From Acaryochloridaceae cyanobacterium VAR_48_metabat_390 (lineage in GTDB: Bacteria; Cyanobacteriota; Cyanobacteriia; Thermosynechococcales; Thermosynechococcaceae): a stretch of DNA of 29,333 nt. A program made the translations under genes and the position numbers. The stretch lies in assembly GCA_031422435.1 (NCBI GenBank), contig JANPLU010000114.1, forward strand, positions 1 to 29,333, in the 5' to 3' direction. Positions 3,204-29,333 of this stretch are shown here, one piece after another (position 1 is the first letter of the stretch; each line of letters starts with the position of its first letter). Below the pieces are notes generated by a model. The model ran no database searches and was not told the origin of the DNA. It worked only from the letters and a program-made list of their open reading frames with translations.

Positions 3204-3290
3204 CGGAGAGGAGAGGATTCGAACCTCCGGATACATTGCTGCATCATCTGATTTCAAGTCAGACGCAATCGACCACTCTGCCACCTCTCC
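3204..3290 (-). tRNA. trnS: tRNA-Ser (anticodon TGA)
   Basis: Reverse complement GGAGAGGTGGCAGAGTGGTCGATTGCG-TCTGA-CTTGAAA-TCAGA, long variable arm, GGAGG-TTCGAAT-CCTCT-CCTCTCCG. Acceptor stem GGAGAGG/CCTCTCC; CCA not encoded. Confidence 0.97.
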
Positions 3291-18455: not shown

Positions 18456-21400
18456 TTAGAAGCGCAGGCGATACTCTAGAATGCCCAGAGCATCACCCTG
18501 AAAATTCACTGAGCTTCTAAGACGAAGCTGATCGGTAAAGTCATAGCTGAGATTAAGCTGCGGCAGCTCATTAGGAGCCGTCACGATTTGAAGCACCGAG
18601 ACCGACAGGCGATCGGTTACATCGTAGCCAAATTCTGCCCCCAAGTTGAGCGTTGACCCCGTATTGCTGTTGTTGTCTTTGATGGGCGTGAGTAGCGGAA
18701 ATAGCCGGAAGCTGGCGCGACTGCCCAACACGTCATCCACAATGCTCTGAAACCGATTGAAGACCGCTGAGCTGGCAAAGTTGACAATGGCCCCCTGGGC
18801 GTCTCCCGCCTCAAGAGACTGCGTAATGCCGCCGCTGAGGAGGGCTAAGATCTCGTTTTGAGTGCGCCCTGGCGTGCTGCTCAGCTCTAAAATGTCGCTA
18901 AAGCGCGTGTTGAGCTGGCTGGCTCTGCCCTGAATATTGGCTCGAACCCGAACCGATTCAATGGAGCCAAGAGTTCCCGCTTGGACATCTGCAAATTCAT
19001 TAAGGTTGGTTTTGCGACCTGCGGCAACTTCTGTCACTGTGGTGCGGAGACTAAGGTTTAGAAGTGGGTCTAGGCCATAGGCAGGCGTAAATTGGGCGTA
19101 GTTGTCTTTGCGTTCGTCTACTCTAAACTGCGTCGTAAAGAGATAGACATTGCCTTTTTTGAAGCGCACAATCCCGCTGGGGCGCGGGGCATCGACGGAG
19201 CCGTTTAAATCAACCTGCCCTGTGGCAATGAAGCTTAGAACAGGCGGCTGTAAAATGCGGATATTTTCACCTAGACGTACCTGTAGCCCCTGAAACGCTG
19301 CCGAGGCTGCTCCTCCCCCTGAGGTAGAAGTGTCTGTCTGTCCTGTTGCTGAAGATTGAGCAGCAGAGGCCGCCGCCAGCAGCACTTCACCATTGTCTAG
19401 GGCAACAAAGCCTTTAATGACAGGTCGAAAAACACTCCCAATCACGTTGAGGTCGCCATTGACCTGCCCTTTATATAGCCCTTTAACGCTGAGGGCGGTG
19501 TTATTAAGCAAGACAGAAAGTGGCGTTTCGACGGGCAATTTCTCATCAAAAATGGGAATGCTGCCCTTTACGATGAGTTGGCCTTTGTTATAGCGTCCGA
19601 TTAATTCAGGTACGTTAAGGCGATCGCTATTAAAGCGCACGGAGCCATTCACGTTCGTCAGCGGCTCTGGAAAGGTGGGCGATCGCAGGGTTGCATCCTG
19701 AAGCGCTAAATTGCCGCGCAGTAAAGGCTTATCGAGGGTTCCCCTGACCTGAAGATTAAGACTCCCTTTGCCATCAACCCAGGACACCTGATCTGAAAAT
19801 AAATTCACCAGCGCTAAGCCCTGATCTTTGACAGCCATCGAAATATTGACCTGATTATCCGAAGGCTTCACGGAGGAGAAGGGCAGCGCATAGGGCACAT
19901 TGCCCTGAATTTGAATGGGTTCAGGAGAATCAATATTGGCGGTGCTGTTAAATGCCAGCCGCGCATCTTTATAGCTAAACTGCGTGAACGCATTTTGGAC
20001 ATTGGCGCGGTTGATGACGCCTTGGTCAATGCTAAATTGCCCCTGAAGGCTGGGGTTGTCCCACTGACCCGCTAGAGTGGCAGTGCCATTGAGTTTTCCG
20101 GTGACGTTGACGGGTAAATCTAATAAGTCTGCAATGGATTCAACGGGCACTTGCGTGACGGTGAGCTGACCGGACTGGCGATCGCCACCCCCCACTCGCC
20201 CCACAAAGGAAGCCATACTTTCACCACTGGTGATGCTCAGTGGCTCCACGGTGATGCCGGATGGCGTAATGCTGCCCTTTGCTATCACCTGATCGAGGCG
20301 GTAGGGGTCTAGATCCCAATTTTGACCTGCAAGATCAAAGCTGCCATTTAGCCCTGTCTTAAGCGATCCGGCAAAGCGAACCTCGCCTGCAATGCGACCC
20401 TTTAGTTTTTCCCAATTGGGCAGCGCTACGCCATTGCCCGCCTGCTTCTGTTTAAGCTGAGCTAATAGCGCATCCACCTCTGCTAAACGCTGGAACTGCT
20501 GCCAAAGCGGAATCTCAGACAGGTTGACGGGTTCTGTCTGTACATTACCTGCACGACCCAAATTAGGGGAGGCTGGATCGATTGCGCCGAGGGAAGACCC
20601 AAGGGATTGACCGACGGCAATTAAATCTTCAATCTGCGCTTGGGCAATGAGCAAACGCCCCGAGACCTGAGGGTTGGCAAAATTGCTCAGGGTGGCATCA
20701 AGCTGATACTGATTTTCGCCCTGGACTAAGCGCGCCTGGGTAAGCGTTGCCACGCCCTTGGCATAGCGAATTTGACCTGTGAGGCGATCGCCTACAAACC
20801 GACCATAGCCGACGCGCCCTAGTCCGGGCTGCTCTACAACAAAAGCGCCATCGGCATCTAAGGTTTGTAAGTTGAGCGCCAGGGTTGCAGAGGCGTTGCC
20901 TGAAACTGAGCCGATGTTTTGTGAAATTTGCGGAAACTCATTGAGCGCCATGAGCGGCACGTCTTTTAGGACCAGACCAAAGATATTGGGCGTGGTGCGC
21001 TGCCCCACAATTGAAGCCGTATCGCGGCGGATGTCTATCGCAATGGGGCGCTGTTTTGCATCCAGCGCCACCTGGATGCGATCGCGCGTACCCCCTAAAT
21101 TCAGATCTAGCCCCTGCACAGCATCAAAATTGAAACGACCGACCATCAGTGGCTCAAAGGCCAAGTTAGATACCTTGAGGGTAGAGACTTCTATCCTGCT
21201 GGTTAAGACCGGAGCGCTGAGCGTCCCCGTGAGCCTGCCGTTGAGATCGGCAAGGCCGTGGAGCGGATTTTGGGAGAGTTGGGGTGCCGCAAGCCGATTT
21301 AACTCAAAGCCCTGCGCCACTACGTCTAAATTTAGGGTCGTAATTTGCGGTGCCTGAGGGCCTTGTAAAATTGCGCCGACTACCCCACGCGCCTCAAAAT

Positions 21401-23723
21401 TAGGCGCAGAGGCACGATCCACAAGAATTTGGCGTCCATCCCAACGAATCTGGGTTGTCAGCGGATCTTGCAGAACCGAAAGCCCTTTTGAGAACAGCAA
21501 AGCTCCCTTCGCACGGGCGGTTTGGGCACTGAAGCCCGATAGCGCCCCTGTGATGGCAAGCTGACCGGAGAGTGCGCCTTTGAGGTCGGCAGAGTAGCCG
21601 GTCAGATCAATTCCAGGCAGCACCGCGTTCAGGTCAACCTGGCCGTCAGCGATAAGGCCACTAATCTGAACACTGCCGCCCTTCACTTGAGCTACTACGT
21701 CCTGTAAGGTCGTTCTGCCTTGACGGATGACGGCTCGCCCAACGGTTGGGTATACGCCCCCAGGAGCCTGAAACTGCACGGTCGTCTCAATATCGCTGAC
21801 AGGGCCTGCAACTAATGCACTGCCGCCCACTAGCCCAATAGCAAAACCAGGAGATGCCTGATAGAGCTTGGCGATCGCATCTCCTGATAGCCCGCTGGCC
21901 TGAAACTGTGCGCTCAAAACGCTTTGGTTCGGCTCTGGCTGAATTTGCAGCGTCGCAACCCCTATGATATTGCCCCCGTCAGTGGGCGTTGCGGCAATAT
22001 CTGAAACGGTGAGTAAAGACGGCACCAGCTTAAACTGTGCCGAGGCGGTCTGCATTGGAACTCGGTCCAGGGTCACGATGCCAATATTCTGGACGCTGCC
22101 CGTGAGGACAGGCTGGGCGATCGCACCCCCCACCCGAATGTCACTGGACTGAACCTGACCCGCCACCGGAAAGGGCAGCGCACCCACTTTAAGGGTTTGA
22201 AGGGCAGTATTCACCTCAATGGGTTCGGTCTGCGCCACAAGGTCATAGCCGCGATCTGGATCGATGGAACCCCGCGCCCTGACTGGAATTGCGCCATAGC
22301 GGGTAGTAACGCCTTCTAGCGTCGCCGTTAACCCCCTGAGGCGAACGATGCCGTTTGTATCTAGAAACGGCTGAGGTACCCCCGGCACCGCAGCATCCAC
22401 GCGACTCAACGACGCAATGCCCTGAAGGAAAGGGCGCTCGTTTTTCTGAAGCCGCACCCCAATGTTGCCGCCCACGCGCCCCGCGCTTACTCTAATGGGT
22501 AGTTGATAGGCTTGGTCAAAGAGAGCTGCCGGAACGTTTTGAGCCTGAATCAGCAGATTGGCGCTCTCTAAGGGGAGACGAACATTCCCTTTGACGGCGG
22601 CATTTCCCCCGGCGGCTAGGGCACCTTTGAGGTCGAGCTGCATAATTTGAGAAGCGCCCAAAAACTTAAGGGTGCCGCTAATATTCCGCGCCGTTTGGCG
22701 GTTACTCCGACCATTCGCCAAAATCAGCTTTTCTGGAATCTGACCTTCTGCGCCTTGAATAAAGGCGTTGCCCTGTACGATCGGCTGCTGATTGGATGGC
22801 ACAGAAACCAGCACGTCTAGATCAATCTGGGCGGCTTTTCCAGCAATAAACTGCTCTGTCCACGCCCCCTGCGCCTGCCGCAGTTTACCTTTACCGCCCA
22901 GACGCCAAGGCTGCTGCGGGGCGTAAGCTAACTGAAGCTGACCATCAAACTGCCCCCCACTGACGAGTACTGGACTCGGCGGCAACAGCGGCAGGAGTGG
23001 CGCTATCGTAAGCTGCTGGGTTTGAGCCGTAAGGTCTAGCGCTTGCTGGGGTGGCCTCCAACTGCCATTGAGCGCTACGCGCCCCCCAGAGTCAATTTCA
23101 GCGGTGCTGCGAAAATCAATATTTTTGTTATTGTTCTTAAACTGCACCACCCCGCTGCTGCGCTGCAAAATTCGAGGTGCGCCAACGGTCGGCGCTAGGG
23201 TAACGGTTGCGTTTGAGGTCTGAATGGAGAGAAGCTGAATTTTAATGCCGCCAGACTCAGATAAGGGGCTGAGGGTGGTGCCAATCCAGCGGTTATCGGG
23301 CGCCTGATCGAGATAGACCGTGGGACGATTCAGAGTTAAATCAAGTCCCAGCCTTTGATTGAACAAAACCGTCCAGAGATTAAAGCGAACCACCACGGAT
23401 TCTGCTGTGGCCTGATCTCGATCTAGGATATTCTTACCATTGAGCCGAGTGGGGTGAGGCGGAATGGTTGATCGCCCATACTCAATCTCGGTTAAGGAGT
23501 AGCGCTTTAGTGGCCCAAGTTTGACAGGTCTGTTGAGCAGCTTCATGAGGTTTAGCTCAAGCAGCGGAGCCAACTCATTTTCTACAAAAATGAGTCCACG
23601 CCATGCCGCTGTTCCAAAAAGACCACCCAGAATAAATAGACTCCAGAGTACAGGAGGGCTGAACAGCGCCAGCCCTAGCTTTTTGGGTCCCCGTGGAGAC
23701 GGATCTGGAGAAGAATAAGACAT
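18456..23723 (-). CDS. tamB: Translocation/assembly module TamB (DUF748/DUF490) protein
   Basis: 1755 aa, N-terminal TM anchor, long beta-rich repeats, C-terminal LDP.L, LSSTP.R...EI.ALL, EYRLRF. Confidence 0.88.
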   Translation of the reverse strand: MSYSSPDPSPRGPKKLGLALFSPPVLWSLFILGGLFGTAAWRGLIFVENELAPLLELNLMKLLNRPVKLGPLKRYSLTEIEYGRSTIPPHPTRLNGKNILDRDQATAESVVVRFNLWTVLFNQRLGLDLTLNRPTVYLDQAPDNRWIGTTLSPLSESGGIKIQLLSIQTSNATVTLAPTVGAPRILQRSSGVVQFKNNNKNIDFRSTAEIDSGGRVALNGSWRPPQQALDLTAQTQQLTIAPLLPLLPPSPVLVSGGQFDGQLQLAYAPQQPWRLGGKGKLRQAQGAWTEQFIAGKAAQIDLDVLVSVPSNQQPIVQGNAFIQGAEGQIPEKLILANGRSNRQTARNISGTLKFLGASQIMQLDLKGALAAGGNAAVKGNVRLPLESANLLIQAQNVPAALFDQAYQLPIRVSAGRVGGNIGVRLQKNERPFLQGIASLSRVDAAVPGVPQPFLDTNGIVRLRGLTATLEGVTTRYGAIPVRARGSIDPDRGYDLVAQTEPIEVNTALQTLKVGALPFPVAGQVQSSDIRVGGAIAQPVLTGSVQNIGIVTLDRVPMQTASAQFKLVPSLLTVSDIAATPTDGGNIIGVATLQIQPEPNQSVLSAQFQASGLSGDAIAKLYQASPGFAIGLVGGSALVAGPVSDIETTVQFQAPGGVYPTVGRAVIRQGRTTLQDVVAQVKGGSVQISGLIADGQVDLNAVLPGIDLTGYSADLKGALSGQLAITGALSGFSAQTARAKGALLFSKGLSVLQDPLTTQIRWDGRQILVDRASAPNFEARGVVGAILQGPQAPQITTLNLDVVAQGFELNRLAAPQLSQNPLHGLADLNGRLTGTLSAPVLTSRIEVSTLKVSNLAFEPLMVGRFNFDAVQGLDLNLGGTRDRIQVALDAKQRPIAIDIRRDTASIVGQRTTPNIFGLVLKDVPLMALNEFPQISQNIGSVSGNASATLALNLQTLDADGAFVVEQPGLGRVGYGRFVGDRLTGQIRYAKGVATLTQARLVQGENQYQLDATLSNFANPQVSGRLLIAQAQIEDLIAVGQSLGSSLGAIDPASPNLGRAGNVQTEPVNLSEIPLWQQFQRLAEVDALLAQLKQKQAGNGVALPNWEKLKGRIAGEVRFAGSLKTGLNGSFDLAGQNWDLDPYRLDQVIAKGSITPSGITVEPLSITSGESMASFVGRVGGGDRQSGQLTVTQVPVESIADLLDLPVNVTGKLNGTATLAGQWDNPSLQGQFSIDQGVINRANVQNAFTQFSYKDARLAFNSTANIDSPEPIQIQGNVPYALPFSSVKPSDNQVNISMAVKDQGLALVNLFSDQVSWVDGKGSLNLQVRGTLDKPLLRGNLALQDATLRSPTFPEPLTNVNGSVRFNSDRLNVPELIGRYNKGQLIVKGSIPIFDEKLPVETPLSVLLNNTALSVKGLYKGQVNGDLNVIGSVFRPVIKGFVALDNGEVLLAAASAAQSSATGQTDTSTSGGGAASAAFQGLQVRLGENIRILQPPVLSFIATGQVDLNGSVDAPRPSGIVRFKKGNVYLFTTQFRVDERKDNYAQFTPAYGLDPLLNLSLRTTVTEVAAGRKTNLNEFADVQAGTLGSIESVRVRANIQGRASQLNTRFSDILELSSTPGRTQNEILALLSGGITQSLEAGDAQGAIVNFASSAVFNRFQSIVDDVLGSRASFRLFPLLTPIKDNNSNTGSTLNLGAEFGYDVTDRLSVSVLQIVTAPNELPQLNLSYDFTDQLRLRSSVNFQGDALGILEYRLRF

Positions 23724-24153
23724 GACACGCTCTGGTTAAGACAGCGGTGGCCTATGGAGCGATTGCTCTAAGCAGTAACGATAGAGAAGTGAAGAGTAGA
23801 AGCGATCGCCAGATAGGAGTGAGGAGTCGTATTCAGGGCTTGCACAGCACTTTAACAAATTTAATTCTGTATATTCTCACAGGACGGCGACAACCTGTTC
23901 AAAGTGCCGACTAAAACGGCGCTTTGAATTGCCACAGCAAGGCCAATATGAAACAATTTTGAACGAGTGCCGCTACCCTCTCTTAATATTGGGACATAAT
24001 TCTGTGAGAACATCTACCTATTGACAGACCTTGCGAGGTCTATCAAGGTCGTGCCCAAGCGTCAAGGTGAACGCAGGACTGGGGTGCAGGGCGCAGCAGC
24101 AAAGGCAACAGTAAAGTTTTAATTTTCAGTTTTTGATTTCCATAAGGGTGGCT

Positions 24154-24549
24154 ATGCGAGTATATGTACTTCTGTTTAACGTAGGCACTGATAATGAAGG
24201 CATTCACACCCTTAAGCTGAAGCAGCCCGAAACAGAAGATGACTACCAAGATGTGGTGCTGGCCTTTGAGGAAGAGGATGATGCGACCCGCTTTGCGGTG
24301 CTGCTAGAAGCCCAGGATTTTCCAGAGCCTGCCGTGGAAGGCATTGACACCGAAGAGCTTGAAGAGTTTTGCGAAAGTTCTGGCCTAGGACTGCAATATG
24401 TCTCTGAAGGGATGCTGGCAGTGCCTCCTTCCTCTAATGTGGATGAAACCGATTGGCAGGAGGAGGGGGCAGTGCCGAGAGCAGAAGAGCCAGAACCCGC
24501 AATGGCTGACCTAGATGAAATTAAGCGACGCCTGGAGCGGTTGCTGTAG
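24154..24549 (+). CDS. DUF3110 family protein
   Basis: MRVYVLLFN..TDNEGIHT, FEEEDDA.RFA.LLEAQDF, PP..N, RRLERLL. Confidence 0.88.
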   Translation: MRVYVLLFNVGTDNEGIHTLKLKQPETEDDYQDVVLAFEEEDDATRFAVLLEAQDFPEPAVEGIDTEELEEFCESSGLGLQYVSEGMLAVPPSSNVDETDWQEEGAVPRAEEPEPAMADLDEIKRRLERLL

Positions 24550-26213: not shown

Positions 26214-26348
26214 CACCTTAATGTGGCAACAAAAAGAACAAGATGGAATGCTCTATGGTGGGCTGATCTCTATATCGCTGCCCCAAAGACAGTAGAGAAG
26301 ACCAAGCTGATTAGATTCGCTCTAAAATTATCCTGACTTGTATAGGTT

Positions 26349-26550
26349 GTTCAGAACCTTCAAAAATAATAATGTATGCCGTTCTGGAGGTTGGTTTTGG
26401 GCACGAAACCTATGCCCTGAAACTAGACTGATAGCGGGGTTCACATTGTCAACCCATACTACGATTACTTTCTTATATGCGATGGAAGTAATGCTTAAGA
26501 TGAATGGCATCACGCATTTATTCTAGAAAACTTCTAGAGTGGTTATTAAT
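26349..26550 (-). pseudogene. intI: Decayed integron integrase (IntI) N-terminal SAM-like domain
   Basis: Minus-strand manual translation INNHSRSFLE*MRDAIHLKHYFHRI*ESN, then +1 frameshift VVWVDNV...AQNQ...TLLFLKVL. This resembles the IntI N-terminus (…PRKLLEQVRDAIRLKHYSYRTEE.YV.W…V..NV..STQNQA..ALLFLY..VL). Two in-frame stops; start codon appears decayed to ATT. Confidence 0.78.
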
Positions 26551-26621
26551 AAGAATGAATGGGCGATGCATAGGTAAAGAAGAGTTGATGATTTGGGAGT
26601 ATTATGTTAACTTTCCTAAAT

Positions 26622-26797
26622 TTAGACTGCAAAATCCTGTCTAACCACCCAAAACCAAGCTACTTTAAAACAATTGCTGTCTAACTACTCAATTCGGGGT
26701 GTTAAACTGCAAATATTTTGCCTAACATGCTAAATTCGGCAGATTAGGCTGCAAATATCAGTCTAATTATAGTTAGACTGATATTTGCAGCCTAATC
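26622..26797. repeat. Four ~41-bp spaced degenerate repeats bearing GTCTAAC/GCCTAAC boxes, ending in a 56-bp palindrome
   Basis: GTCTAAC 26639, GTCTAAC 26679, GCCTAAC 26720, GTCTAAT 26761; TTARRCTGCAAA at 26622, 26702, 26744; perfect 25-bp inverted arms 26742-26766 and 26773-26797. Confidence 0.85.
26761..26778 (+). other. Putative integron attI recombination site
   Basis: GTCTAAT-TATA-GTTAGAC: inverse-core-like box plus GTTRRRY core, located between the divergent intI remnant and the first cassette ORF. Confidence 0.6.
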
Positions 26798-26822
26798 AGG
26801 AACAGTTATCAAATGTCAACCA

Positions 26823-27371
26823 ATGAAAAATCATTCTTTACTTATTTTCCTGGGTAGCTTATTACTTCAGCTTTTCTTGCCATCTTTTGTTTTTGCTACT
26901 AATACTATTCGCTATAAAGGTTTCACAATAGTTAGGGAGAGTACACCAAAAACAACTACTTCTACTACCTTTGTTGACTTACCTGGAGCCACGGGTACAA
27001 TTCACGTAATGACAAGGGAACCATCTCTATTAATAGTCCGCTTCTCTGGAAATAGTTCTTGTGCTAAAGAATTAACATTTGATAAAGTACAAACATCAAG
27101 TGCTGGAGGATTTTGTTTACTAAAAATTCTTGTTAATGGTCAGAGTATTCAACCTAGAGACTCTCGATTTGATAGTACAGAATCAATTGGTTCTTCAGTT
27201 GATAGATCTTATCACAATGTTTCTATCGATAGAGCGAGTATTCTTCGCCCTGGCTACCATACTGTGAGGGTTGTATGGGCAGTAGTCAATGCATTTCCAC
27301 CTTCAACAAAGCCCCCTATATTTACTCTCGATAGTTGGAGTCTAACTCTTCAAGAAGTGTTTCCAGAATGA
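26823..27371 (+). CDS. Low-GC secreted hypothetical protein (beta-rich, possible C1q/TNF-like jelly roll); putative gene cassette 1
   Basis: Signal peptide (LLIFLGSLLLQLFLPSFVFA), two Cys, alternating beta patterns; visibly more AT-rich than core genes. Confidence 0.75.
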   Translation: MKNHSLLIFLGSLLLQLFLPSFVFATNTIRYKGFTIVRESTPKTTTSTTFVDLPGATGTIHVMTREPSLLIVRFSGNSSCAKELTFDKVQTSSAGGFCLLKILVNGQSIQPRDSRFDSTESIGSSVDRSYHNVSIDRASILRPGYHTVRVVWAVVNAFPPSTKPPIFTLDSWSLTLQEVFPE

Positions 27372-27581
27372 AAAGTAAATCTCTTTTTAGCTAATTTCAT
27401 CTGTATGGCTTAAGATAGACCTACTTCTGATCTAAGTTTTGTTGCTGAGTTTAAGTAGTACATTTTTAAAACTTTATTTGTAAATTTTTGTTGTTGTGGC
27501 GGGGTAATCGCAACAAAAAGTAGCAGAAATATTTTGGCTCTGGCGGTACAATATTTTGGGTTAAGGTTGCTGTACTGACGG

Positions 27582-27674
27582 ATCTAACTGCTCAGTGCAC
27601 CAGACGCACGGATGATCACTGTGGGTTTGCTTCAAAGTGCATCGCGTCCGCCGATAAGCTCGATAACGTTAGAC
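27582..27674 (+). other. attC-like site 1 (degenerate)
   Basis: ATCTAAC (RYYYAAC) 27582 ... GTTAGAC (GTTRRRY) 27668; 93 bp; internal complementary stems GACGC/GCGTC, GATG/CATC, CACT/AGTG. Confidence 0.7.
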
Positions 27675-27938
27675 TTCGCCAGCAGTTTTTAGTAACTGTA
27701 TGTTAGGTTAACATTAGCAAACCCACTGCCAGACAATCAGCCGAGACAATCGCTTCACCCTGCAACAATTTACCTAAGCATGAGCCTTTCATTCGCTTAT
27801 GTGATCGCCGCCTCAGCTTATAATGTGCCAAGGCGGTGATCGTTTTTTTCAAGATTTTGGGGTTGCTGAAGGGGGCGATTTTAGATTGAAGGTTGGTTTA
27901 AAAGAACGATTGAGTTGGCTTAAATTGGCGATCGCATT
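27669..27938 (+). repeat. ~270-bp non-coding direct repeat, copy 1
   Basis: Aligns by eye end to end with 28925-29196; begins TTAGACTTCGCCAGCAGTTTTTAGTAA, ends GGCGATCGCATT. Confidence 0.92.
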
Positions 27939-27969
27939 TATGTACGTGTGTGATTGACCAGAGAAAACA

Positions 27970-28137
27970 TTAGCGTGAACGCAGCCAATTATCCAGATCC
28001 GCAGCACTAGAAAAATCGAGTAACGCTTCGCCCAGTAACTCTAAATGCTCAAGGGAGAGACATTCAACCTGCGATGTCAGGGTTGGAGATATTTGACCGA
28101 CGCGGCGAGTGAGCTGGCGGATGATGAGCGATCTCGG
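27970..28137 (-). pseudogene. DUF4351 domain fragment (C-terminal domain of Rpn/PD-(D/E)XK-type proteins)
   Basis: Manual translation PRSLIIRQLTRRVGQISPTLTSQVECLSLEHLELLGEALLDFSSAADLDNWLRSR*; preceded by in-frame TGA, no start codon at its 5' end. Confidence 0.82.
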
Positions 28138-28277
28138 TCATTTTGAAATCATTCCCGTCAGAACTTCGGCAGAGGCTGCTCAACGTATTGCGGATAAGCT
28201 CTAGAGATATTCTCTGGCTGCGGGCAGAAAGAGGTTTAGGTATAGTGTTAGGTAGATATTTTTCCCGATAGCGTTTT

Positions 28278-28502
28278 ATGAACTACCAAGACATTATTAC
28301 GATCGAGCCTGGGAAGCGCAGTGGCAAGCCATGTATTCGAGGACTGCGAATCACTGTGTACGATATCTTGGAATATCTAGCAGGTGGGATGACTGAGGCA
28401 GAAATTCTAGAAGATTTCTCTGAACTCACCTCCGAAGATATCAAAGCTTGTCTTGCTTTTGCGGCAGATCGTGAGAAGAAGTTGTTTGTGGCCTCGCTGT
28501 GA
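28278..28502 (+). CDS. DUF433 family antitoxin (VapB45-like)
   Basis: ITIEPGKRSGKPCIRGLRITVYDIL..LA.G....EIL.DF..L..EDI.ACL.FAA. Confidence 0.93.
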   Translation: MNYQDIITIEPGKRSGKPCIRGLRITVYDILEYLAGGMTEAEILEDFSELTSEDIKACLAFAADREKKLFVASL

Positions 28503-28831
28503 AACTGCTTTTGGATGAAAATCTCTCAGACCGGATTGTGTACCGGATTATCGATTTATATCCTGAATCTGAGCATGTCAAAACCTTGGCACTGACAAAC
28601 ACTGATGACGGCATCATTTGGGAATACGCAAAAGCAAGTGGTTTTGTGATTGTTTCAAAAGATTCTGATTTTCATCAGCGTAGTTTGCTGTATGGCCATC
28701 CGCCTAAGTTTATCTATCTTCAGGTTGGTAATTGTCCAACATCAAAAATTGTTCAGATTTTAAGAGACAATCTTGAAACGATTATTCAGTTTGGAGATCG
28801 AGAATCAGAAAGTATATTAGTGTTGACGTAG
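28499..28831 (+). CDS. DUF5615 family PIN-like toxin (VapC45-like)
   Basis: MKLLLDENLS, D..IW.YA, IVSKDSDF, GHPPK.I.L..GN; GTGA overlap with the antitoxin. Confidence 0.92.
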   Translation: MKLLLDENLSDRIVYRIIDLYPESEHVKTLALTNTDDGIIWEYAKASGFVIVSKDSDFHQRSLLYGHPPKFIYLQVGNCPTSKIVQILRDNLETIIQFGDRESESILVLT

Positions 28832-28843
28832 TGTGAAACCGTC

Positions 28844-28930
28844 GCATAACAGCCCCAATGCAGCGCACAAACAGAATCTTCGCGCCTCGTTTCAAGTTTT
28901 CTCGTCGTCACTGATCGGGAACGATTAGAC
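28844..28930 (+). other. attC-like site 2
   Basis: GCATAAC 12 nt after the toxin stop; CCCAATGCAG pairs with CTGATCGGG leaving an extrahelical G; ends GATTAGAC (core with an extra A); 87 bp. Confidence 0.72.
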
Positions 28931-29196
28931 TTCGCCAGCAGTTTTTAGTAATTGTCTGATAGATTGACATTAGTAGACTCATTGCCAGACAATTAGCCGA
29001 GACGATCACTTTCTCCCTGCAACAATTCACTCAACCATGAGCCTTTCATTCGCTTAGGCGATCGCAGCCTCAGCCTACGATTTGCCAAAGCAGTTATCGT
29101 TTTTGCTTAAGATTTCGGGGTTGCTGAAGGGACGATTTTAGCTGGAATGGTTGGCTTAGACGGGCGATTGGGTTGGCGTAGAAGGGCGATCGCATT
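28925..29196 (+). repeat. ~270-bp non-coding direct repeat, copy 2
   Basis: Diverged copy of 27669-27938 with many substitutions and small indels. Confidence 0.92.
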
Positions 29197-29198
29197 GG

Positions 29199-29333
29199 GA
29201 GCATCTCACTTTTGCGATAAGTATTTATACTCAAGCATTTAAGACATTAAAAACGGGAGACTTGAGGCACTGTACTTGGAGTGAAGCGTATGACTCCCGA
29301 AGAAAAACAGACCATAAAAGTCCACTTGGATGC
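29199..29333 (+). mobile_element. Left end of an ISKra4-family insertion sequence with transposase start, running off the window end
   Basis: GAGCATCTCACTTTTGC terminal-repeat-like sequence at 29199; ORF from ATG 29290 reads MTPEEKQTIKVHLD, like cyanobacterial ISKra4 transposase N-termini. Confidence 0.7.

Follow-up and report, generated by a model that had tools for sequence, protein, structure and literature searches.

The DNA analysed here, referred to as the window, is a stretch of 29,333 nt that makes up the entire contig JANPLU010000114.1 (C114) of Acaryochloridaceae cyanobacterium VAR_48_metabat_390, whose genome (G000) comprises 3.7 Mb in 136 contigs with 49% GC; other C numbers denote its further contigs, and G001, G003 and so on denote the genomes of relatives. 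An original prediction, made from the letters of the window alone, had proposed a hidden, decayed chromosomal integron near its right end. We found at this place a 5' stub of an integrase gene (intI), an attI region, a short row of cassettes with two attC sites and a toxin–antitoxin (TA) pair, and the end of an insertion sequence (IS). Sequence comparison indicates that the element is a real chromosomal integron whose integrase gene has been reduced to 83 bases, while the whole attI region and a short cassette row are kept. The integron proposal holds with corrections: matches to an attC model, similarity to IntI and variable gene content at the locus in relatives were all found.

The intI stub occupies 83 nt at 26468-26550 on the minus strand, about 28 of ~323 codons, and was recognised by alignment to the intact intI of a relative (contig C715 of G001, hereafter G001:C715). 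Its start codon maps to 26550, where ATG has become ATT, a stop stands at codon 11 and the match ceases at gene nucleotide 83, so that a recombinase cannot be encoded. Stub and attI region together (26468-26776) shared 78% DNA identity over 312 nt with the intact locus on G001:C715. By contrast with this alignment, a profile search with TIGR02249 and PF13495 gave no integrase match on C114 and missed the stub, as had been foreseen for annotation based on open reading frames (ORFs). Representatives of the stub's integrase type (C69, G001:C715 and G003:C39) were 92-97% identical to one another and 71-72% identical to the intact enzyme encoded on C129. The remnant had been predicted to span 26349-26550 on the minus strand; only 26468-26550 aligned to an intact intI of the same type. 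We also considered 26349-26467 as frameshifted intI, which looked plausible in translation and failed shuffle tests: when 26214-26467 was compared with the intI body, 41 out of 300 shuffles scored as high. Before 26468 lie a palindromic repeat (26385-26468) and the decayed start of a PBP gene (26226-26366) instead.

The attI region (26622-26778, plus strand) was delimited by comparison with the attI sites that flank intI genes and consists of four phased dyads and a core site. The predicted attI-like core, GTCTAAT-TATA-GTTAGAC, stands at 26761-26778 with the crossover G|TT at 26772/26773, and the same core adjoins intI in G000 (C69, C129 and C61) and in relatives, including intact intI genes. 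The dyads end at 26644, 26684, 26725 and 26766, with a period of 40-41 nt, and are equally phased on C69 and G001:C715 (four each) and on G003:C265 (three matched). Among 30 loci at which intI has its start, the core pattern yielded an attI candidate in 13, of which two are doubtful; three of the remaining loci had less than 130 nt upstream. By its sequence, the site is an attI located upstream of and divergent from intI. A promoter scan returned 7 sites against 7.1 expected and did not locate Pc. The region resembles attI1 of class 1 integrons, as described in PMC8946536 and PMC4792948, in its G|TT core site and upstream accessory repeats; whereas attI1 has two direct repeats (DR1/DR2), the window has four phased dyads plus a fifth, inverted dyad past the crossover.

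This fifth dyad belongs to a 25-bp stretch (26773-26797, minus strand) that repeats the attI left arm (26742-26766) perfectly in inverted orientation, centred on the 6-nt overlap at 26767-26772. The copy had been overlooked by the original prediction, as had an extra A in attC2 and two ~270-nt DUF4351 units (see below). Unlike this site, none of 16 other attI candidates (18 rows, two of them duplicates) or five further loci had an arm longer than 6 bp. One contig of run X1, which may be the source sample, crossed the palindrome unchanged (0 differences). Throughout G000 there are about 60 perfect inverted repeats with arms of at least 16 bp, many with A/T-rich tails, and eight with arms of at least 25 bp, seven of which lie away from this site. 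Such numbers imply a general process that makes these repeats and therefore favour fold-back copying, by which we think the inverted copy probably arose; it would likely have happened once, seeded on the site's own inverted repeat. The palindrome may instead be a scar of IntI acting on attI alone, through a left-arm/left-arm fusion or a hairpin that was later rescued, an origin that we regard as possible and as the less probable of the two. The arms meet exactly at a 6-nt centre, which is the spacing of the two IntI1 crossover points, provided that attI1 geometry carries over, and the inverted copy covers one whole dyad plus 2 nt. A top-strand A/A crossover is described for attI1 (PMC4792948). 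However, seven of the eight long repeats in the genome lie away from this site, fold-back copying from the 6-8-bp inverted repeat of the site itself would have the same centre, a clean second junction is missing at the right end, and this is a single case. Pattern scans of metagenomes gave 0 matches in one and 44 in another, which we took as chance, none of the 44 having an intI match or an arm longer than 2 bp. A resemblance to protelomerase or dif sites, for which no profile search was made, was dropped, the left arm being homologous to ordinary attI sites. The literature accessible to our search contained no palindrome-extended attI; the supplements of PMC4889954 and 10.1101/2025.06.18.660453 may list such elements.

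The covariance model for attC sites (R1) was built on 14 sites, none of them from the window, that had been chosen by pattern and by visual inspection; six came from five other genomes and eight from C69 and C95. Compensatory changes occurred at 10 out of 21 pairs of the alignment, above all 500 shuffles and all slid controls, a figure inflated by related sequences. Among 11 R1 matches in the window at E≤5, the top two, both full length and on the bottom strand, were the two predicted sites. The model placed attC1 (27582-27674, listed on the plus strand) at exactly the predicted coordinates, with 29.9 bits and E values of 1.1e-5 (window) and 0.0013 (whole genome); its R box is intact and its L region slightly degenerate. 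It provides an attC on the strand expected for the array, the bottom strand, as judged by our own model. For attC2 (28844-28930, plus strand) the predicted coordinates also agreed to the base, although the match is weak (13.7 bits, E 0.15) and the site is decayed, with its crossover GTT broken by an extra A at 28924 in addition to stem substitutions. A homologue of attC2 behind the same TA pair in G296 was 90-91% identical and had an intact GTT. Runs X1 and X2, both from one study, crossed attC2 with 0 differences and carried the window's broken form. Genome-wide, R1 gave 18 matches at E≤1 among 150 scored out of 882 candidates, and eight of these were training sites. The covariance-model check that had been proposed thus detected attC with a model that contained no window site. 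A loose attC regular expression was rejected as too noisy, with 347 matches genome-wide.

The AT-rich ORF that follows attI proved to be a member of a real gene family. This cassette 1 gene (26823-27371, plus strand; 37% GC versus 49% for the genome) encodes 182 aa with a hydrophobic N-terminus and a predicted TNF/C1q-like beta-sandwich, and its protein had 219 related clusters at E≤0.001. The structure model reached pLDDT 87, and the best Foldseek matches were the BC2L-C N-domain (E 3.6e-6) and PLTL lectins (E 5.4e-6), at TMq of about 0.5 and 13-16% identity. There was no match in Pfam or PADLOC, a word-indexed protein search returned the protein itself only, a PDB sequence search gave nothing significant, and Atlas matches had no common family. 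The product is likely exported; a lectin with a surface or sugar-binding role is a possible lead only. There was an attC match (E 0.0018) some 140 nt behind the homologue in G008 and none behind that in G006. Between this gene and attC1 lies a non-coding spacer (27372-27581, plus strand). It is related to a cassette without an ORF in the array on C95, with 70% identity over 122 nt at 27436-27553 (score 113.5 versus a shuffle maximum of 64.5).

Unit 2 (27669-28130, minus strand) starts at the crossover with a ~270-nt non-coding leader, followed by the 3' end of a reversed DUF4351 gene (PF14261, E 3e-20 on 27973-28122) whose 5' part is deleted. Near a GATC at about 28130, a fusion joins it to what remains of the 5' part of the TA cassette (28126-28277, plus strand), which holds the end of a DUF3303-like ORF (so identified by PF11746 on the G259 ORF) and a likely promoter region, and aligns upstream of TA homologues in G059, G259 and G296. 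Because unit 2 is cut and joined to this remnant, one attC has likely been deleted here. The same ~270-nt leader and reversed DUF4351 gene follow each attC: the second leader (unit 4; 28925-29196, plus strand) was 84% identical to the first, and its DUF4351 gene lies beyond the IS on C89. We tried the leaders as decayed genes, found all frames broken and treated them as non-coding. By its sequence, the DUF4351 unit is a candidate cassette only; in G003 and G007, DUF4351 genes with a comparable leader upstream had no attC match, and one out of 19 related DUF4351 loci had attC matches. The arrangement of the window, with a reversed DUF4351 gene behind an attC, recurs at a single attC-like match on C98. 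The accessible literature on DUF4351 held no description of such units.

The TA pair is intact and consists of overlapping ORFs for a DUF433 antitoxin (74 aa) and a DUF5615 PIN-like toxin (110 aa) at 28278-28831 on the plus strand, both over the cut-off (PF04255 and PF18480). As predicted, it stops 12 nt before attC2. Compared with its copy in G296, dN was 0.007 and dS 0.153, from which the pair appears to be under purifying selection. TA cassettes stabilise integron arrays, and this one would likely keep the island from deletion. DNA matches to the pair occurred in 78 out of 301 class-level genomes. Among the best 29 other TA loci, six had an R1 match at E≤0.01, five of them right behind the pair; in G296, a sixth attC lies directly behind the pair and is split by an IS, which sits within the attC loop (L177, 2226-3532). 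At another such locus (L180, G053:C31), an ORF right at the start of the attC after the TA pair looks by eye like a group II intron reverse transcriptase, as in group IIC-attC introns. The gene order, a DUF433 gene and then a PIN-like gene in one operon, is that of VapBC10 (ssr2962/slr1767) of Synechocystis PCC 6803, a COG2442/DUF433-PIN system in which the DUF433 gene likewise lies directly upstream of the PIN-like toxin gene (PMC3834315, PMC4963859). Unlike VapBC10 as those sources present it, the pair described here is an integron cassette, likened to it by gene order and domains, and its toxin is predicted. PADLOC returned no matches.

The window ends within an element of the ISKra4 family (29197-29333, plus strand), assigned through a copy on C61 that shares this end and whose transposase scored 254.7 bits with NF033572, over the cut-off. 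As in that family, there is a target duplication: 9 bp are duplicated at 29188-29196, and among five opposite IS ends in the genome only that of C89 has the same 9-bp flank. C89 continues with the rest of the second DUF4351 unit and then with the FHA-PBP gene that directly follows DUF3084 in G009 and G005; R1 found no further attC on it, and no integrase was found. Since C89 joins through the shared flank and reaches FHA-PBP, the island is an insertion with defined borders, about 3.4 kb long without the IS. The suggestion that the array might continue past the IS was borne out for the remainder of one DUF4351 unit; a long continuation was rejected, because no attC follows and the core PBP gene comes next.

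The left border is the DUF3084 core gene (PF11283; 24708-26213, plus strand). In G009 and G005, FHA-PBP stands within ~115 nt after DUF3084, the empty site, so the island is positioned chromosomally between core genes, with DUF3084 on its left and PBP and metK-like genes on its right (on C89). Directly after DUF3084 lies a decayed copy of the FHA-PBP gene start (26226-26366, plus strand), comprising the upstream region and first codons; its local alignment to the PBP gene start scored 68, with 0 out of 500 shuffles as high, and the counterpart on G003:C265 scored 78, again with 0/500. The more distant G009 gave no significant alignment (75/500 shuffles as high). The decayed copy and the intact FHA-PBP copy at the far end on C89 form an old direct repeat around the island. 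At the intI break there is a degenerate palindromic dispersed repeat (26385-26468, no strand assigned), presumably REP-like, which was 81% identical over 84 nt to an element directly after the DUF3084 stop in G001; no integron accompanied that element within ~0.9 kb of sequence. Seven partial copies of the repeat occur elsewhere in G000, and the accessible literature gave no description of it. GC content falls to 35% across 26501-27500. The density of HIP1, a cyanobacterial marker, is 1.04 per kb and points to a cyanobacterial origin, as do named cyanobacterial records with a relationship to a protein from the same genus.

Comparison of the sequence downstream of DUF3084 in relatives revealed variable gene content. 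At nine full-length DUF3084 loci in same-genus genomes, none showed this integron in the stretch seen, G001 and G008 having less than 1 kb of contig downstream. One extra contig, G003:C265, does carry an integron after DUF3084, with the same decayed PBP copy, the same repeat, the same break at nucleotide 83 and the same codon-11 stop as the window. The dead regions were 83% identical (462/556 nt). The attI of G003:C265 is clean and non-palindromic, and its cassettes are wholly different: no cassette was common to the window and the 6.6 kb of this array in either direction, and an 84% identical TA homologue lay on another G003 contig. On G003:C265 (L087, 222-6540), the stretch between two attC contains a gene resembling Ser/Thr kinases, a TA-like pair and another two large ORFs; at 6.3 kb it is unusually long for one cassette.

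IntI was found over the cut-off in 29 out of 61 genomes, G000 included. A hand-picked, non-exhaustive set of 20 partial matches, each anchored at the 5' end of intI, had more than 1.2 kb of contig past the break in every case; 17 of them had no match past residue 240. In 13 out of 20 of these, and in 11 out of 17 of the 5'-only stubs, an attC at E≤0.01 lay on the cassette side and the expected strand; of the seven loci without one, four have less than 1.3 kb upstream. The sequences thus indicate that 5'-only intI stubs are a common state in these cyanobacteria, which makes the present locus less novel and supports the general point on the origin of clusters of attC sites lacking an integrase (CALINs). 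The accessible literature, that on integrase activity in trans included, described no cyanobacterial 5' intI stubs, and the two supplements mentioned above may list them as well.

At least three further integron heads are present in G000. The search for an intact intI elsewhere in the genome succeeded on C129 (1213-2154), which encodes an IntI of a second type (484 bits versus a cut-off of 265). C69 (3905-4530) carries a 5'-truncated, broken copy of the window's integrase type with its own array, and C61 (13716-14290) a broken integron head with a frameshifted IntI. The C129 attI lacks the phased dyads of the window attI. The first cassette at C129 attI matched, at 115/115 nt, a cassette that follows an attC on C95, and from this identity an integrase appears to have been active recently in G000. 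C95 itself has at least eight attC matches. Its ORF-less cassettes, of about 300-390 nt, are repeated, one family being present three times, and another cassette has two genes that by eye resemble a HicAB-type pair; the contig ends in the sequence identical to the first C129 attI cassette. Eight further single attC-like matches occur on C124, C105, C98, C79, C112, C128, C103 and C82, several right behind AT-rich or TA-like genes.

Taking these results together, we weighed four accounts of the locus. That its pieces are chance motifs or unrelated mobile debris, or that the palindrome is an assembly artefact, is largely refuted and barely credible: attC2 alone is not significant and the loose attC pattern matches widely, but the 78% identity to an intact intI/attI locus, the E value of attC1 and the attC2 copy behind the same TA pair in G296 speak against chance, and a second assembly crosses the palindrome unchanged, though X1 may be the source sample. 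As in all integrons, the cassettes would have been inserted at attI by an IntI, and intI would then have been cut in an ancestor common to the window and the G003:C265 locus. We think it somewhat probable that the array content kept changing after this loss through an IntI acting in trans, and likely that the array is now close to frozen. The same break and stop accompanied by wholly different cassettes suggest, at the level of sequence, turnover in trans after the loss, for which dating gives no proof. Xanthomonas strains with the same intI lesion usually have identical arrays according to 10.1101/2025.06.18.660453; here the same lesion goes with no common cassette, which supports turnover. 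The TA cassette was 95.5% identical over 733 nt to the copy in another family (G296), and its divergence was no greater than that of the dead stub region between its two carriers. A trans-acting IntI, most plausibly a same-type copy like the now-broken one on C69, would have replaced cassettes in one or both lineages. For the C129 IntI, which shares 71% identity with the cognate type, excision at attC sites would be the most that could be expected, and only attC1 is near-intact; attC sites are reported to be recombined by several integrases and attI by the cognate one only (PMC2095811). Present-day insertion and excision of cassettes at the retained attI by the intact C129 integrase is very unlikely: both attI types share the 6-nt overlap and core pattern, the dyads are kept, and the enzyme is intact and apparently was active recently; however, it is non-cognate, its own attI has no phased dyads, attC2 is broken, and in the pieces listed for runs X1 and X2 the sequence was that of the window and contained no excision joint.

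Several points weigh against turnover in trans. The dates overlap: a TA dS of 0.15 and non-coding identity of 91-93% stand against stub regions that differ by 17%. Between the window and G003:C265, only three positions are changed in the final 94 nt of DUF3084. The first junction is altered by the inverted copy, so the first cassettes could have been lost without an integrase. A single other stub carrier is known, and its contig ends inside its array, so the missing cassettes may simply be unassembled; its DUF3084 fragment is 97% identical to the window and 82% to that assembly's own full gene, and the contig may belong to a co-binned strain. No cassette-excision joint appeared in four runs, data consisting of contigs, which drop rare forms and cannot show absence. 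The reported need of attI for its cognate integrase (PMC2095811) counts here too, as the assembly has no intact cognate integrase. Free folding of the attC bottom strands was unremarkable (z -1.0 and +0.6; controls +0.4 to -3.8), and free-energy folding separated neither the window sites nor three out of five control attC sites from shuffles. A less probable but serious alternative is that the integron froze when intI was lost and that differing deletions eroded one long ancestral array with no later integrase action, by deletion between similar attC or repeated leaders, IS activity or template switching. Decay is directly shown at the locus, where attC2 is broken at the crossover, two cassettes are fused by deletion near GATC and the last unit, which has no attC, is split by the IS, all independent of an integrase. 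The G003:C265 array is cut by the contig end, and freezing is the described norm after intI loss in the accessible literature. What separates the two is that no cassette is common to the 6.6 kb of the G003:C265 array and the whole window array, and that the TA cassette looks no older than the split of its carriers; both argue against erosion alone, and we consider continued turnover in trans somewhat more probable.

The element works like a decayed integron on its way to becoming a CALIN. It has no intact intI beside its array and is not a complete integron; no integrase lies nearby on C114 or on C89 past the IS, and CALIN membership, for which two or more attC within 4 kb are called for, hinges on attC2, which is weak but homologous to a GTT-intact copy. 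The original prediction of a sedentary integron turning into a CALIN is thus supported in its integrase loss and decay, whereas 'sedentary' in the Vibrio/Xanthomonas sense does not apply: the position is between core genes, but the locus is absent from all nine full-length same-genus DUF3084 loci in the stretch seen, and in place of a large array of closely similar attC there are two dissimilar ones and none on C89. CALINs as described by Cury et al. 2016 (PMC4889954) are alike in having attC and cassettes with no nearby integrase, an IS inside and an intact IntI elsewhere; here, by contrast, the origin is visible in the remaining attI and 5' stub, and the second attC is degenerate. That paper reported cyanobacterial integrons and found half of CALINs in genomes encoding IntI. 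It sought intI pseudogenes with a C-terminal profile only and found them in 15 out of 279 CALINs, 95% having no recognisable one; a 5' stub could therefore not be seen there. Chromosomal integrons of Xanthomonas (10.1101/2025.06.18.660453) likewise lie beside a core gene and have lost intI by deletion or stop codons, but that locus is ancestral to the genus, whereas the present one is patchy, with two carriers of one lesion and no common cassette. The Treponema phagedenis remnant (PMC3607928) similarly retains attC and cassettes at a chromosomal locus after intI loss; its description mentions no intI trace, in contrast to the stub, attI and second, intact integrase found here.

Cyanobacterial integrons, CALINs and intI decay are already in print, integron decay is a known end, and the locus alone is an ordinary decayed integron with no resistance genes. 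For the origin of CALINs, this locus shows the 3'-trimming route directly; as 5'-only stubs with attC are common in relatives, integrase loss may have given rise to a larger proportion of CALINs than has been estimated. The two carriers, alike in their lesion and different in their cassettes, also provide a natural case for whether dead integrons are reloaded in trans. A broader and rather doubtful idea is that cyanobacteria keep integrase-less satellite integrons, with intI 3'-trimmed and attI kept, in which one integrase would load several docks in trans; many CALINs would then be such stubs, missed by C-terminal profiles, and the 56-bp palindrome would be a fossil of attI self-recombination.

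An Rfam scan of the window gave nothing at the integron locus and one match overall, a tRNA gene at 3204-3290 on the minus strand (RF00005). Left of the island lie ordinary core genes, including a TamB-family gene (18456-23723, minus strand; 1755 aa) and a DUF3110 gene (24133-24549, plus strand).

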